A stretch of DNA of 44,698 nucleotides, taken from a virus. The DNA is taken from positions 1 through 44,698 of IMG/VR virus record IMGVR_UViG_3300037424_000686. One strand, written 5' to 3'. A model generated the notes under the pieces. It did not search any database. It was not told where the DNA came from and saw only the letters and a program-made list of their open reading frames with translations. Of the stretch, positions 9,704-44,698 are shown one piece after another; the stretch's first letter is position 1, and the number at the start of each line of letters is the position of its first letter. Position numbers and translations under genes: made by a program.

Positions 9704-12100
9704 ATGACCAACCAACCGCAGATCGTGCGCCTGTTCGAGGCCGGGTTCCGGCCGCTCGTGTGCGTGATCCCGCCCCGCGCGCCGCTCGCGCCCACGAGCC
9801 GTATTCCGCCCGGCAAGCTCGGCAAGACACCGGGCGTGCCCCTCGGGAATGGCACCTGGGTCGGGTACCACTGGCTCAAGTACGTCCCGAACGACGCGGA
9901 CATCCGCCGCTGGGCGCAGGCCGGCGCGAGCGTCGGTATCCTCGCCGCCGGCTACCCGGCGCTCGACATCGACTCGATGGACCCCGTGCTCGCGAGCGAG
10001 ATCGAGCAGCTCGCGCTCGACATCCTGGGCCCCGCGCCGGTCCGGTTCGGGCAGCGCCCGAAGCGGCTCCTGATGTACCGGACCGGAGAACCGTTCGCGC
10101 GCATTACGTTGTTCATCACGCGCGACGGCGTCGAGCGCCGGATCGAGTTCCTGGGCGCCGGCAACCAGTACCTGGTCGACGGCGAGCACCCGAGCGGCGC
10201 GCGGTACGAGTGGTTTACGGCGAGCGACGCGCCGACGGACCTCACCAGTTACGGCGAGAAGGACTTTACGTGGATCACGCGCGCCAACGTCGAGGCCTTC
10301 TTCGAGCAGCTGATTGACCTGTACGGGGAAGCGAACTGCCGGCTGGTCGGGGATGGGAAGGTGCGCGAGCGGGACGCGACCCCGCAGGCCGATCTGCTCG
10401 CACCCTCCCTGGACGCGCTCCGCGCGGTCGTGGACACAATCCCGAACACGGACGAGGTCGTGCCCACCCGCGACGAGTACGTGCGGGTCGGGCTCGCGAT
10501 CCGGGCCGCCGGCGGCGAGGATGCGTACGAGCTGTTCGCGTCCTGGTGCGCGCGGCACCCGAAGGATCAGCGCGTGTCCGGGAACCCCGAGACCTGGCGC
10601 GAGGATTGGGGCCGCTTCCACCCCCCGTACACGCTCGGGTGGGGCTGGCTGTGTGACTTCGCGGCCCCGTTCGGGTTCGCTCGCGCGACCTGGGAGTTCG
10701 CGGCCGAGGACGCGCCCGCCGCGCCGGCCGCGGTTGAGGACGAGCGCGCGCCCGAGTTCTCGGAGCTGTGGCTCGCGGACTACGTGATCTCGCAGGTCGG
10801 GGACCTGCTCCGGTACGCGCCCGAGCAGGGTGCGTGGTACGTGTGGTCCCGGGGCCGGTGGGCGCGGGACGCGATGCTGCTCGCCGATTACCACGTGGGC
10901 GAGGTCCTGAAGCGGCTCGCGGTCGCGTGCCTGCGGCGTGGGGCCACGGACGCGGAGCGGAAGCGCCTCACGGGCCTCGCGGAGAAGCTGTGCTCGATCG
11001 ACAAGCTCCGGAACGTGCGTCAGCTGCTGCGACATGATCCGCGGATCGCGGTCCCGATCACCGCGTTCGACGCGAACCCGTGGCTGCTCTCGACCCCGGC
11101 CGGGATCGTCGACCTCCGCACCGGCGAGCTGCGGCCCCCGGACCCGAACGCGATGTGCTCGCGGATCACGACCGTCGCGCCCGAGTTTGCGACGCCGAGC
11201 CCGATCTGGGATAAGTTTCTGAACGACAGCACCGCGGGCGATATTGAGCTGCAGCTGTACCTGCAGCGCCTGCTCGGGTACGGGCTGACCGGGCTCACGG
11301 ACGAGGACGCGCTCGCGTTCGTGTGGGGCGAGGGCCAGAACGGGAAGTCCACGTTCCTCGAGGTCGTGACGCGCATCTTCGGGGACTACCACGAGCGGGC
11401 CGCGATGGAAACGTTCCTCGCGACGACGTACGACCGGCACCCGACCGAGCTGGCGAAGCTCGCCGGCGCGCGGCTCGTCACCGCCGCGGAGACCCAGGAG
11501 GGGCGCCGCTGGGACGAGCAGCGCGTCAAGGAGTTGACCGGCGGTGATGAAGTGACGGCGCGCTTCATGCGCGAGAACTTCTTCAACTTCTGGCCCAAGT
11601 TCCTGCTCCTATTTTACGGAAACCACCGGCCCGAAATCCGGAACCTGGACGAGGCGATGCGGCGCCGCTTCCACCTTGTGCCGTTCGTGCATCGCGTCCC
11701 GGACGAACTGAAGGACCTCCATCTCGCCGGGAAGCTCAAGGCCGAGTACCCCGCGATCCTCGCGTGGATGATCCGCGGCTGTATCGAGTGGCAGCGGCGC
11801 GAGCTCGCGCCCCCGAGCTCGGTGCAGCTCGCGACCGCGGAGTACTTCGCGGACGAGGACCCCGTGGGGCGCTGGATCGAGGAACGGTGCGAGACGCGGA
11901 GCGAGATGGCGGCCACGATGGTGGACCTGTTCCGCTCCTGGGAGCAGTGGACGAACGCGAACGGAGAGTACACCGGCTCCGCGAAGCGGCTCTCGCTCGT
12001 GCTCGCCGCGAAACGCTTTGGGCGCTGGCGCGAGCCGGGCACAGGCCGGCGCGGGTTCACGGGACTAAAACCGCGGAACGAACTGGAGGAAGTGATATGA
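9704..12100 (+). CDS. bifunctional primase-polymerase / D5-P4-type helicase
   Basis: The N-terminal prim-pol has LDIDSMDP (DxD) and GEHPSGARYEW. This is followed by a PriCT-like segment, a D5_N-like segment (LRYAPEQGAWYVWSRGRW), and a P-loop GEGQNGKSTFLEV. Confidence 0.85.
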   Translation: MTNQPQIVRLFEAGFRPLVCVIPPRAPLAPTSRIPPGKLGKTPGVPLGNGTWVGYHWLKYVPNDADIRRWAQAGASVGILAAGYPALDIDSMDPVLASEIEQLALDILGPAPVRFGQRPKRLLMYRTGEPFARITLFITRDGVERRIEFLGAGNQYLVDGEHPSGARYEWFTASDAPTDLTSYGEKDFTWITRANVEAFFEQLIDLYGEANCRLVGDGKVRERDATPQADLLAPSLDALRAVVDTIPNTDEVVPTRDEYVRVGLAIRAAGGEDAYELFASWCARHPKDQRVSGNPETWREDWGRFHPPYTLGWGWLCDFAAPFGFARATWEFAAEDAPAAPAAVEDERAPEFSELWLADYVISQVGDLLRYAPEQGAWYVWSRGRWARDAMLLADYHVGEVLKRLAVACLRRGATDAERKRLTGLAEKLCSIDKLRNVRQLLRHDPRIAVPITAFDANPWLLSTPAGIVDLRTGELRPPDPNAMCSRITTVAPEFATPSPIWDKFLNDSTAGDIELQLYLQRLLGYGLTGLTDEDALAFVWGEGQNGKSTFLEVVTRIFGDYHERAAMETFLATTYDRHPTELAKLAGARLVTAAETQEGRRWDEQRVKELTGGDEVTARFMRENFFNFWPKFLLLFYGNHRPEIRNLDEAMRRRFHLVPFVHRVPDELKDLHLAGKLKAEYPAILAWMIRGCIEWQRRELAPPSSVQLATAEYFADEDPVGRWIEERCETRSEMAATMVDLFRSWEQWTNANGEYTGSAKRLSLVLAAKRFGRWREPGTGRRGFTGLKPRNELEEVI

Positions 12101-12522: not shown

Positions 12523-12745
12523 CTCGGTACGTCCTAAAAAGAGGACAGTTTGTAACAGGAACGTAATGGGGCCCACAGCTTCACGGCTCCCCTCCCTGTT
12601 GGGGCCTGCTAGAATCCTAGCACTGGTGCCGCAATTTGCAATAGCTGGGACTTGCAGAAAGTCAGACTGGACAGGCCGGGACGTATGCCCTAACGTAGTC
12701 TCCGCGCCAGGGTGATCCCGCCCGGCTAGCCAAAGGAGCCCCAAC

Positions 12746-41110: not shown

Positions 41111-41767
41111 TTATACGCACCGCACGACGCTAAGTCGTTGCGACGCAACGAGTTGCACGCACTGTGCGCCCGTTACAATCGGGGTCTGCGTGGTCGGCAG
41201 CTCGGAAGCCGAGGCAGGAGCATGCCAAAGTGGCAGATCAGCCTGCCATTCTGGCTTGCGCGCACGGGTTCGATCACTCGGTCGCACGCTCTCACGCTCC
41301 ACATCGGCCGGATGCCAGGGCAATTGACGCATCTGCCGGTCGGCACCTACCAGCATGAACGCACAGCTCACACCTGATCCCACCGACACGAACAGCACCG
41401 GCGGGAAGGTCGGGTTCAGCATCTTCTCCTCATCGAGGCGTGAGGCATAACAGTGCTCCTGCTTGGTGTGCTGTGCATCGAGATAGATGTGGTTGTGCCA
41501 GATCGCGCGCGTCGCACCAGGACAGAGCCCCCAATTCACCGCGACCGCGTCCGCGCTCGCGTCGCTCTCGATCCACGGCGCTTCGGCGATGCCGTCGAAG
41601 CGCAGCGTATCCCCGTACCAGGTCGCGAGCACGCAGCGCGCGTGCTCCACCGTCGCGGTGTCCGCGATCTGCTCGAGGTACGCGCGCACGCGCACATCAA
41701 ACTCGAGCTGGGACTGCGCCGACGCGGCGCTCGCCCACATCAACAGCGCGATCCACGCGTACCTCAT
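41111..41767 (-). CDS. secreted protein, unknown function (atypical codon usage)
   Basis: The ATG overlaps the TerS stop (ATGA). It has a signal-peptide-like N-terminus MRYAWIALLMWASAASAQ. Third-position GC is lower than in its neighbours. Contains WHNH...ASRLD. Confidence 0.65.
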   Translation of the reverse strand: MRYAWIALLMWASAASAQSQLEFDVRVRAYLEQIADTATVEHARCVLATWYGDTLRFDGIAEAPWIESDASADAVAVNWGLCPGATRAIWHNHIYLDAQHTKQEHCYASRLDEEKMLNPTFPPVLFVSVGSGVSCAFMLVGADRQMRQLPWHPADVERESVRPSDRTRARKPEWQADLPLWHAPASASELPTTQTPIVTGAQCVQLVASQRLSVVRCV

Positions 41768-42288
41768 AGCAAATCCTCCAGCTTTGGGGGTGAGAGCAGC
41801 TCAGGCTGCGCGGGTAGGGATTCGACGACTGTCTCGGCGGGGAGCGCGGCCGCGCCACCCTTCGCCTTGAGGGCGTCGAGGTGCAACGTTCCAATGTTGA
41901 TCTGCACGCCACCGGTCTTCGGCGGGGCGTACTCCTCGCTCAACGTGCCGGCCAGCCAGCGCCGCGTATCGGCGCGCAGCTTCGCGCCAGCCACGATCGC
42001 GCTCTCGGTCTCACCCTCGGTCTCGTCCACGATGTCGACCGCCTCGTCCACGAGCGCGTGCGGCGTCTCCTCGCGGCGGACCCGGTAGAAGGCCTCGAGC
42101 CACTCGGGCTTCAGCTTCAGGTACTTGCGGATCAGCTGGCGGGACACACCCTCGGGCTTGACGTCCGTGAACTGCTTCCCGACCCAACTGAGGGTCTTAC
42201 CCTCGGCGACCCAATCGAGGATGACCTCGACCCCGCCGCGGGCCGCGACGCGCTCCTGGAGTAGGGCGAAGATGGGCATACCAGGCAT
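41764..42288 (-). CDS. terS: terminase small subunit
   Basis: An N-terminal HTH-like segment (KTLSWVGKQFTDVKPEGVSRQLIRKYL) is followed by AGAKLRADTRRWLAGTLSEEYAPPK, the ARLR.DTRKW...K..P..Y signature I associate with TerS proteins. It is the first gene of the late arm. Confidence 0.65.
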   Translation of the reverse strand: MPGMPIFALLQERVAARGGVEVILDWVAEGKTLSWVGKQFTDVKPEGVSRQLIRKYLKLKPEWLEAFYRVRREETPHALVDEAVDIVDETEGETESAIVAGAKLRADTRRWLAGTLSEEYAPPKTGGVQINIGTLHLDALKAKGGAAALPAETVVESLPAQPELLSPPKLEDLL

Positions 42289-42333
42289 TCGGCTTCCGAG
42301 CTCCAGGGCTGGGCGTGTGGGTTGTGGGCACGA

Positions 42334-42382
42334 AAAAGCCGCCCACTACCGAATATATGCCACATTCCTGCCAAAATGTCAA
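42334..42382 (-). promoter_or_regulatory. promoter-like element facing terS (left arm of a 49-bp inverted pair)
   Basis: The minus strand reads TTGACA-N19-TATATT inside TTGACAttttggcaggaaTGTGGCATATATTCGGTAGTGGGCGGCTTTT. The 31-nt core is 28/31 identical to the right arm. Confidence 0.45.
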
Positions 42383-42406
42383 GTGGTGAGTAAGTACTCA
42401 CTATCT

Positions 42407-42687
42407 GTGACAGATGTGACAGATCGGTGACAGATTTTTAAAAATCTGTCACACCCCTAGCCCCCGGCGTGGCAACGAGTTACGAGATACCGTGACAGAT
42501 GTGACAGATTTTGGTCCGCATGACGGCGTATAGTGTATATAGCGTGTAGTGTCTTACGTACGTATGCCTGTCATAGAGCAAATAATCTGTCACATCTGAC
42601 AAGACAGGGCCTAACCACTATGCGCGATAAGCGGTTAGCGTTGTAATGTTTCCGCCAAGCATCTGTCACATCTGTCACATCTGTCAC
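42407..42687. repeat. ten copies of 9-mer ATCTGTCAC / GTGACAGAT in dyad-symmetric tandem arrays (iteron/operator-like)
   Basis: GTGACAGAT occurs at 42407, 42416, 42427, 42492 and 42501. ATCTGTCAC occurs at 42444, 42585, 42661, 42670 and 42679, plus a degenerate ATCTGACAA at 42594. Bases 42427-42452 form a perfect 26-bp palindrome, GTGACAGATTTTTAAAAATCTGTCAC. An AT-rich core lies around 42520-42570. Confidence 0.9.
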
Positions 42688-42705
42688 ACCCTCGAGCTCT
42701 CCGAC

Positions 42706-42754
42706 TTGACTCCGGGCCCCGATTGTGGCATGTATTCGGTAGTAGGCAGCTTTT
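42706..42754 (+). promoter_or_regulatory. promoter-like element facing the early arm (right arm of the inverted pair)
   Basis: TTGACT-N19-TGTATT inside TTGACTccgggccccgatTGTGGCATGTATTCGGTAGTAGGCAGCTTTT, followed by CCCTGGAGG and ATG 42779. Confidence 0.45.
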
Positions 42755-42778
42755 CACCGAAACCCTGGAGGTCACCCT

Positions 42779-43261
42779 ATGCTGTTCCCCCTCACGTTCA
42801 TGCTGCTCGCCGGCGTCGCCCTCGGCGCTACGGTCCTGTTCCTGGTCCGTCCCCCGGAGGTCGTGACGCGCGAGGTCGAGCTGCCCGTGTTCGTCCCCAC
42901 GCCCGTGTACCCGGACACCGCGGCCGGCGTCCTGGACGTGATCGACCGGCTGCTCGCGTCCGGGTTCCGCCCCAACGCTGGTCATGCCCCCGGGAGCCCG
43001 GCGTTCGAGTCGCGCGCGCTCTGGGACGTCCTGAGCGCGCTCCGCGGCCCCGACAGCAACGATGTGGCCGTGAAGGCCCGCACCACCGAGGTGATCCGCA
43101 CCCGCGCGTTCCCGTGCACCGCGCTCACCAGGTGCGGCCCCGCGGACTTCGCCCCGCCGGGCAACCCGCTCCTGGTAGACACGAGCGGTCTCTCGTACTT
43201 CGATCACTTCCGGATGCACGCCGTTTTTGCGGATGCCGCGCTGCGGGCGATGGGGCGCTGA
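42779..43261 (+). CDS. N-terminally membrane-anchored protein, hypothetical
   Basis: GGAGG lies 7 nt upstream of the ATG. TM helix LTFMLLAGVALGATVLFLV. This is the first gene of the early arm. Confidence 0.6.
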   Translation: MLFPLTFMLLAGVALGATVLFLVRPPEVVTREVELPVFVPTPVYPDTAAGVLDVIDRLLASGFRPNAGHAPGSPAFESRALWDVLSALRGPDSNDVAVKARTTEVIRTRAFPCTALTRCGPADFAPPGNPLLVDTSGLSYFDHFRMHAVFADAALRAMGR

Positions 43262-43593
43262 TGCCGCGCGCCACGAAGCGGGCACGACGTCGCACCCTGC
43301 GGCATGGGACGGCTATGAGCCGCGGCCCCGAGGTCCCGATCGGGCTCGAGGGCGTGCCGCCCGCGCTCCTGGCCGCGTGGCGCCGCGAGCATGTCGCCCG
43401 CGCCGAGTCCGGTCCCGAGTTCCTGACCACCGCGCAGCTGCAGGCGCTGTGGGGCGTGGGCCGGAGCGCGACCGGCCTGCGCCTGCGCCGGATGGCGCGC
43501 GCGGGTCGCATCGAGCGCGGCCTCCGTCGCGCCGGCACGATCCTGGTCCCCGCATACCGACTGAGACACCCTGCAAGGAGTCCCGATGAATGA
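43261..43593 (+). CDS. winged-helix DNA-binding protein
   Basis: ATG 43261 overlaps the upstream stop (TGATG). FLTTAQLQALWGVGRSATGLRLRRMARAGRIER followed by ILVPAYRL looks like an HTH plus wing. Confidence 0.55.
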   Translation: MPRATKRARRRTLRHGTAMSRGPEVPIGLEGVPPALLAAWRREHVARAESGPEFLTTAQLQALWGVGRSATGLRLRRMARAGRIERGLRRAGTILVPAYRLRHPARSPDE

Positions 43594-44538: not shown

Positions 44539-44698
44539 AGATCAACGGTGTAGAGGTATCCATCAGGCCGTACGCGGACCTGTACGGCGCGGACCTGTAC
44601 GGCGCGGACCTGTACGGCGCGAACCTGCGCGGCGCGAACCTGGGCGGCGCGAACCTGGGCGGCGCGAACCTGCGCGGCGCGGACCTGTACGGCGCGGA
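44535..44698 (+). CDS. pentapeptide-repeat protein, proximal part (continues at base 1)
   Basis: The ATG overlaps the upstream stop (ATGA). Reads MKINGVEVSIRPY (ADLYG)x3 ANLRG (ANLGG)x2 [11 protein letters not shown]..., open to the end of the window. Confidence 0.8.
   Translation, partial: MKINGVEVSIRPYADLYGADLYGADLYGANLRGANLGGANLGGANLRGADLYGA
44574..44698. repeat. 15-bp in-frame tandem repeat, second copy of the block at 11..135
   Basis: Base-for-base identical to 11..135. Confidence 0.95.

Follow-up and report, generated by a model that had tools for sequence, protein, structure and literature searches.

A probable iteron-type replication origin between divergent promoter-like elements of a phage with its own PrimPol/D5-like primase-helicase

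Few phage and metagenomic genomes have an annotated replication origin. In the lambda origin, the target of the O protein, and in iteron plasmids, repeated initiator sites adjoin an easily melted region, and the lambda origin also depends on nearby transcription. P4 carries octamer iterons at two sites, ori and crr, one of them distant from the alpha gene. In the alpha protein, a primase and an SF3 helicase are joined to a winged helix at the C-terminus that binds the origin (PDB 1KA8; PMC2777425). The ORF904 protein of pRN1 consists of Prim-Pol, D5_N and SF3 helicase domains followed by a C-terminal Pox_D5/RFX-like winged helix, and pRN1 needs the DNA just downstream of this prim-pol/SF3/winged-helix gene (PMC2777425). 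In SaPI origins, the C-terminal winged helix of Rep binds iterons just downstream of rep, and Rep loads itself, with no loader; the 6-12 iterons form two sets around an AT-rich centre, at least two per side and running in opposite directions (PMC9371898). The phage locus described here is best read as an element of this ordinary, known kind, an iteron origin, in an unusual position between putative divergent promoters and next to terS. With a probability of roughly 0.7, judged from sequence comparison, we consider positions 42400-42690 to be the replication origin of this phage, of the iteron type and serving its own PrimPol/D5-like SF3 primase-helicase.

The window (the whole stretch of DNA analysed) comprises 44,698 bases with a GC content of 67.9%. 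Its first and last 30 bases are identical, and because of this 30-bp terminal direct repeat it is a circular assembly of ~44.7 kb, so that the plus-strand gene arm beginning at 42779 continues past the window end to ~15274. This arm encodes an Mre11-like exonuclease, RusA, an SNF2-like helicase, a Cas4-like exonuclease, a gp2.5-like SSB, PolA and the primase-helicase. The minus-strand arm, running from 42288 down to 15339, encodes an Sf6-like TerS, TerL and structural proteins; its first gene, and the neighbour of the putative origin, is the small terminase gene (41764-42288, minus strand; PF20901, phrog_1482). The two arms are separated by a 490-bp gap that contains all ten exact copies of the 9-mer ATCTGTCAC. 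As the first-pass annotation had noticed, the intergenic stretch is low in GC: positions 42401-42800 form the only GC trough of the genome (0.50, versus 0.61-0.78 in all other 400-bp segments), and 14 of the 15 least stable 40-bp segments of the genome fall in 42371-42590. GC skew tracks gene orientation and is for that reason uninformative as origin evidence. No tRNA genes were found in the genome, and an Rfam search of 42000-43000 returned no matches.

The exact copies of ATCTGTCAC start at 42407, 42416, 42427, 42492 and 42501 on the minus strand and at 42444, 42585, 42661, 42670 and 42679 on the plus strand. All lie within 42407-42687 and none elsewhere in the 44,698 bases, for which 0.23 copies are expected; none of 100 sequence shuffles reached ten copies and, with one mismatch allowed, extra copies outside the region appear at chance level only. 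The left triple (42407-42435, minus strand) reads as GTGACAGAT on the plus strand, with spacings of 9 and 11 bp, and its third copy opens a perfect 26-bp palindrome, GTGACAGAT-TTTTAAAA-ATCTGTCAC (42427-42452), that is, an inverted iteron pair. Further in come an inner left double of two exact abutting GTGACAGAT copies (42492-42509, minus strand) and, facing it, the inner right iterons (42585-42602, plus strand), where exact-copy and inverted-repeat searches found one ATCTGTCAC and after it ATCTGACAA, identical at 7 of 9 positions. Between these inner iterons of opposite orientation lie 75 bp of low-stability DNA (42510-42584; ~-50 kcal/mol per 40-bp duplex versus a genome mean of -63.7), a candidate DNA-unwinding element, with the outer triples on both sides. 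The right triple (42661-42687, plus strand) has three ATCTGTCAC at exact 9-bp spacing and ends 18 bp before the rightward -35 hexamer; both outer triples lie 18-20 bp upstream of a -35 hexamer, in the same orientation relative to each promoter-like element. The ten 9-mers, the perfect palindrome and the inner double mirrored by one perfect and one 7/9 copy had all been reported in the first-pass annotation and hold. Of the two triples to which it had attributed exact 9-bp spacing only the right one is so regular, and the centre it called AT-rich is low in GC for this genome but, at ~40-47% GC, not AT-rich in absolute terms.

Outside the iterons stand two promoter-like elements. The leftward one, facing terS and the late arm (42334-42384, minus strand), contains TTGACA (42382-42377) and, at 42364-42357, TGTGGCAT, which begins a 31-nt core (42364-42334). 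The rightward, early one (42704-42754, plus strand) has TTGACT (42706-42711), TGTGGCAT (42724-42731) and the corresponding core (42724-42754), and is followed by GGAGG (42766-42770) and the ATG at 42779. The inverted 51-nt arms 42334-42384 and 42704-42754 are 76% complementary and their cores match at 28 of 31 positions, in agreement with the earlier description of near-identical inverted elements, as is the presence of CCCTGGAG before the first ATG of each arm; nothing resembling the cores was found elsewhere in the genome. Promoter function of both elements is a reading of these motifs, and divergent promoters are plausible here. A promoter scanner called neither element, since the 19-nt spacer originally proposed exceeds its 16-18 limit; under that reading, one of the -10 boxes would be TGTATT. 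Alternatively, TTGACW could be followed by 17 nt of spacer whose last bases, TGTGG, form a TRTG-like extended -10, and then by CATNNN as a weak -10; this arrangement is kept in all four copies across two lineages. This conservation of spacing suggests a 17-nt spacer with an extended -10 rather than a 19-nt spacer.

The second lineage emerged from the protein collection, which contained a single relative of TerS (75% identity), on contigs L217-L224; the TerL, exonuclease and small wHTH-like protein of this lineage are 90%, 92% and 64-71% identical to those of the window. A megablast of the region against GenBank phages gave no match, and a viral-contig search via TerS and via TerL no confirmed relatives. 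The intergenic region of L217-L224 is far more diverged than the genes, and the iterons, centre blocks and promoter cores stand in it as conserved islands. The right triple is kept as ATCTGTCAC ATCTGTCAT ATCTGTCAC in L217-L222; L217 also conserves the ATCYGACAAG of the inner right iterons and the centre blocks ATGAC(G)GCGTATAG and TGTCTTAC..ACGTATGC, as well as the inverted pair GTGTGACAGAT ... ATCTGTCACACCCC, which is kept throughout the lineage and has a longer spacer in L217. On both sides, TTGACW-N12-TGTGGCAT-N3-TTCRGTA is conserved. The first-pass annotation had suggested asking in related phages whether the arrays and the 31-nt core covary; in the L217 lineage the iterons and the promoter cores are conserved, and of the left triple only the third copy remains. 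This pattern supports a function for the iterons and for the promoter cores.

One function to be weighed is that of a transcription switch only, in which the 9-mers would be operators for a phage regulator that oligomerises on the arrays and controls the divergent promoters, replication starting elsewhere. The obvious candidate is the wHTH-like protein just mentioned (43261-43593, plus strand; weak AbiEi_4 match below the Pfam cut-off), a possible regulator of the promoter cores. The conservation of its gene and of the cores in the related lineage agrees with such a switch, as does the placement of the outer triples relative to the two -35 hexamers. However, the distances between array and -35 differ by 5-8 bp in the related lineage, so that helical phasing is lost and a strictly phased activator geometry is disfavoured, and the reduction of the left triple to one copy likewise speaks against operators. 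No link between the wHTH protein and the 9-mers was found, and no wHTH homologue recurs beside the arrays of other loci, which gives no support to it as one of the binders proposed in the first-pass annotation. Moreover, the identical array layout occurs at the 3' ends of helicase genes that have no divergent promoters (see below). We therefore regard a switch without an origin as unlikely. The 9-bp spacing, which had been noted as odd for operators, fits an iteron origin, abutting 9-mers being the rule in helicase-adjacent arrays.

For an origin at 42400-42690, the proposed initiator binding the 9-mers is the primase-helicase encoded at 9704-12100 (plus strand), in which Pfam and PHROG matches delineate PrimPol, PriCT_2, D5_N and DUF5906 (SF3 helicase) domains, followed by a C-terminal winged helix. 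It was absent from the candidate binders of the first-pass annotation. The protein matches PriRep5 of SaPI5 (7OLA, E 6e-5; also 7OM0) and ASFV C962R (E 8.5e-6). A profile of 19 C-terminal domains, that of the window first, matches residues 672-765 of PriRep5 (E 7.7e-6), and also the C-terminal domain of C962R and the RFX1/RFX5 winged helices (E ~0.005); a single-sequence AlphaFold model of the C-terminal domain was too poor for use (pLDDT 47). The likeness to PriRep5 thus covers both the helicase core and the C-terminal domain, and the primase is fused in both proteins. With ORF904, the window protein shares its domain order, and the downstream cis region of pRN1 parallels the helicase-adjacent arrays of other loci. 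The P4 site distant from alpha would be a counterpart to an origin that is not linked to the gene of its initiator.

There are also differences from these systems. SaPI iterons are 5-6 nt long and lie immediately 3' of rep in a satellite, whereas the window represents an entire phage of lytic type that encodes its own PolA, and its abutting 9-mers stand ~11.7 kb from the helicase gene, between putative divergent promoters and next to terS. For ORF904 no specific binding site could be demonstrated, and the presumed origin of the window is unlinked from the gene. The P4 protein has a DnaG/Toprim-type primase domain and a different iteron. The initiators of lambda and of iteron plasmids are not helicases and recruit that of the host, whereas the initiator of this phage would itself be a helicase-primase. 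The window has the primase-fused SF3/D5_N helicase, the C-terminal winged helix and the opposed iteron sets, in short all the anatomical features of SF3-helicase origins except adjacency to the gene: the array lies upstream of the helicase gene, and no 9-mer is found near 12100.

From the repeat anatomy, its conservation and the helicase association seen elsewhere we infer the following course of events. The early rightward promoter would express the replication genes, including the PrimPol/D5-like helicase, and the C-terminal winged-helix domains of the latter would bind the ATCTGTCAC iterons. Helicase rings would assemble on the opposed iteron sets flanking 42510-42584, melt this centre and load themselves; the PrimPol domain would then prime, and the phage PolA (7703-9703) extend. 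Given the short distance from the outer triples to the -35 hexamers, helicase occupancy and promoter activity could affect each other.

The association with helicases becomes apparent when the 9-mer is followed into other genomes. An exact scan of IMG/VR for two abutting copies yielded 13 loci, in unrelated viral contigs of 30-69% GC. In several of them (L001, L002, L004, L007, L009, L010 and L011), 4-8 copies of both orientations surround an AT-rich centre. When one genome from each prokaryotic species was scanned likewise, at least 120 matches came up in many phyla. Clustering of all ORFs near the arrays showed that the dominant protein family is the SF3 primase-helicase, and no small neighbouring genes common to the arrays were found. 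The helicase is of the D5_N/DUF5906/Pox_D5 type in most phyla and of the BT4734_N/VapE/DUF3874 type in Prevotella and Bacteroidaceae; helicase-adjacent arrays occur in Bacteroidota, Melainabacteria, Planctomycetota, Acidobacteriota and Methylobacter. An SF3 helicase gene is present in 22 of the 134 listed loci with the tandem 18-mer and, among these listed matches, 18 of the 22 have their closest 9-mer at -11 to +68 bp relative to the helicase 3' end, a proximity expected by chance in ~2% of cases per 8-kb locus. Most of the 134 listed loci have no detectable helicase. Many of these helicase-less loci are two-copy sites of other or no function. The window helicase is 33-37% identical to the proteins of L001 and L009 through to the C-terminus.

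Its closer homologues carry a different version of the repeat. Within 10 kb of the best 80 IMG/VR helicase homologues (~46% identity), ATCTGTCAC is absent, and apart from the helicase these loci have no genes in common with the window. Directly after their stop codons, however, lie inverted sets of variant iterons at 9-bp pitch, for example GGTGTGACGGATGTGACGGAT, 59 nt and ATCCGTCACATCCGTCACACC in L086; the variant motifs include GTGACGGAT, CTGACGC and ATCTGGCAC. Of 75 usable loci in this independent sample of homologues, 58 have two or more variant iterons in the first 270 bp behind the stop codon. The density of variant motifs after the stop is 18-25 times that in the rest of the loci, a figure that is indicative only, as the motifs were defined post hoc from some of the loci tested. 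The succession of SF3 helicase gene and iteron array therefore holds generally, with an iteron that varies on the theme ATC-Y-G-K-C-A-S. The objection that the absence of the 9-mer from the homologues contradicts the helicase link was dropped once these variant iterons had been found. A recognition code relating iteron type to the single residue that follows 'GS' in the presumed recognition helix holds only in part.

Still closer is the agreement in layout. Counted from the first minus-strand copy, the array of the window has minus-strand copies at offsets 0, 9 and 20, a plus-strand copy at 37, minus-strand copies at 85 and 94, the centre, plus-strand copies at 178 and (7/9) 187, and the plus-strand triple at 254, 263 and 272. 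In L001 the corresponding order is 0, 11 and 21 (the last with one mismatch) on the minus strand, 40 on the plus strand, 86 and 95 on the minus strand, the centre, and 173 (one mismatch) and 180 on the plus strand; L119 and L176 have the same left half as L001. The inner left double thus sits at 85/94 in the window versus 86/95 in these three loci, and the inner right iteron at 178 versus 180 in L001. L097 and L117 show minus-strand copies at 4 and 34, a plus-strand copy at 54, minus-strand copies at 101 and 110, and plus-strand copies at 206, 271 and 284, and the distal plus-strand copies of L097 are comparable to the right triple of the window. The palindromic minus/plus pair, with a spacer of 8-21 nt, recurs in L001, L010, L097, L117, L119, L107 and L208. 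Simpler arrays (L145, L110, L130, L178 and L086) consist of two inverted doubles 60-75 bp apart, like the inner pair of the window. GC content in the layout-matched loci is between 31% and 64%, and each array starts within the final helicase codons or just behind them; in L001, L119 and L176 the counterpart of the left triple begins at the helicase stop codon. Because order, orientation and spacing are nearly equal, positions 42407-42602 of the window are the same element as the helicase-adjacent arrays, relocated. In MW202496, an annotated record distantly related through PolA and TerL, iterons are absent both behind the VapE-like gene and from the divergent junction, and a metagenome scan for the triple array, which returned mostly one-orientation tandem runs, gave no further relatives of the phage.

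The neighbourhood of terS raises the question of a packaging site. P1 pac and lambda cosB likewise use short repeats, and a pac or cosB-like site here would mean that oligomers of TerS recognise the repeats in front of terS and guide terminase to its first cut. The array does abut an Sf6-like terS in the lineage of the window and in L004 and L011, and in L001, L002 and L010 it stands at the head of the packaging module. Yet the terminases beside the arrays belong to different families, with a TerL_ATPase in L002 and an HTH_28-type TerS with Terminase_3/6N in L010, while the 9-mer remains identical, so that TerS and repeat do not co-vary. This argues against TerS as the binder, the other candidate put forward in the first-pass annotation. 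Many arrays, furthermore, belong to elements other than phages, where they adjoin a helicase gene and the neighbourhood lacks a terminase, and the helicase being the last early gene equally accounts for a position between the replication and late modules. We consider a packaging role very unlikely. Of the three roles between which the first-pass annotation had left the choice open (early/late switch, replication origin, cos/pac region), comparative evidence strongly supports the replication origin and leaves the cos/pac region with nothing in its favour beyond its proximity to terS.

A further alternative is host regulation. In an actinobacterial host, the GTCAC-N4 tandems could act as MtrA-like response-regulator boxes through which transcription or replication of the phage is tied to the cell cycle of its host. 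The published MtrA box is a direct repeat of GTCACAgcg, and its GTCACA core is present in the window. Chromosomes of Demequina, Cellulomonas and other actinomycetes carry intergenic (A)GTCAC-ATCTGTCAC-ATCTGTCAC, four such sites lie beside NlpC/P60 genes, and GTCAC-N4 triples stand upstream of NlpC/P60 genes in Demequina and Cellulomonas. Against this stand the same arrays beside helicases outside Actinobacteria and the same phage layout in L011 at 45% GC. OmpR-family sites, in addition, are 6-7 bp repeats with a 4-bp spacer (PMC10609481), giving a period of ~10-11 bp versus 9 bp in the window, and the phages nearest to this one in PolA and TerL are either phages of Proteobacteria or of unknown host. 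Such host sites are, in our judgement, the least probable explanation and a highly improbable one.

Reading the array as the cognate origin of the primase-helicase has consequences beyond this phage. We tentatively advance a broader proposal, which we hold to be possible but doubtful: ATCTGTCAC and its one-base variants, arranged as three minus-strand copies, a plus-strand copy, two minus-strand copies, the centre and two plus-strand copies, would be a cross-phylum origin code used by SF3 primase-helicases of the D5 and VapE types, whether these belong to phages, to satellites or to integrative elements. In this phage lineage the origin would have moved away from the helicase gene and fused with the divergent early/late promoters, and the loading of helicase on the outer triples would directly set the time of the early-to-late switch and perhaps also of the nearby start of packaging. 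No description of a shared 9-mer origin code was found in the literature searched, a full-text search for the 9-mer returning unrelated primer sequences only. If the layout marks the cognate origins of this very widespread primase-helicase family, it would provide a simple sequence signature for the origins of thousands of uncultured phages, satellites and integrative elements, and the pairs of helicase C-terminal domain and iteron variant would form a natural data set on DNA reading by winged-helix initiators. The phage would also be a case of an origin parted from the gene of its initiator and set into an early/late control region, which would open the coupling of replication and transcription to testing. 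In practical terms, the window gains an annotation: a probable origin, two candidate promoters and a likely initiator.

Two further observations concern the wider distribution of the repeat. Distant BLAST searches of GenBank phages with the array of the window and seven concatenated arrays gave weak, short and uninformative matches only, namely one 9-mer ahead of a gene in a Cutibacterium phage and matches in Vibrio and Lysinibacillus phages. Array-adjacent genes of some loci encode other replication-type domains, namely DUF3854 in L200 and DUF3631 in L115.

The window carries an identical 30-bp direct repeat at both of its termini (1-30 and 44669-44698) and therefore represents a complete genome of about 44,668 bp, assembled as a circle. 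A Logan contig of 44,482 bp from SRR12684511 is another record of this phage. On the early side of the control region, the first gene (42779-43261) begins with a hydrophobic segment (MLFPLTFMLLAGVALG...). Its counterpart in one variant of the related phage lineage L217 (3004-3177) stands alone as a 57-aa ORF, and a Band_7 gene comes after it. On the late side, relatives possess an additional ORF of 61 or 93 aa between the late promoter and terS.

Within the control region, three blocks that do not belong to the repeats are kept in the L217 lineage, namely CGGCG-GCAACGA (42466-42480), ATGACGGCGTATAG (42520-42533) and TGTCTTACGTACGTATGC (42553-42569), in the midst of DNA that has otherwise diverged. 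Priming, DNA unwinding and the binding of a host factor are possible functions of these blocks. The only one of the genome's 15 least stable 40-bp windows to lie outside the control region (12531-12570) is free of the 9-mer and sits ~430 bp past the stop codon of the helicase gene.

Elsewhere, the 9-mer forms arrays next to replication genes. Prevotella and Bacteroidaceae MAGs contain such an array in many copies per genome (L194 2683-2753 and 5156-5224; L110, L123, L127, L151, L180, and L192), each located directly at the 3' end of a gene encoding a BT4734_N-VapE-DUF3874 primase-helicase and with a mirrored layout, [0+,9+,21+][58-,67-]. These arrays probably act as origins for integrative or mobilisable elements that belong to one family. 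At another locus (L200 362-953), a 244-bp unit with one '-' and three '+' copies of the 9-mer occurs about three times, adjoining the 3' end of a gene for a DUF3854 (Toprim-like) protein, and looks like a duplicated origin.

Many low-GC metagenome contigs (L226-L259) contain runs of three to six abutting ATCTGTCAC copies in a single orientation, with neither an inverted partner nor a detectable helicase on these contigs; such runs might represent minisatellites, repeats within coding sequence or incomplete origins. The motif (A)GTCAC-ATCTGTCAC-ATCTGTCAC is found in intergenic positions of high-GC actinobacterial chromosomes, including those of three Demequina species and two Cellulomonas (L099 3060-3090; L109, L126, L139, L156, L158, L174, L207, and L211). 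These sites show no relation to helicase genes, four of them adjoin NlpC/P60 hydrolase genes, and they look like the operator of a host regulator, possibly an MtrA-like one.
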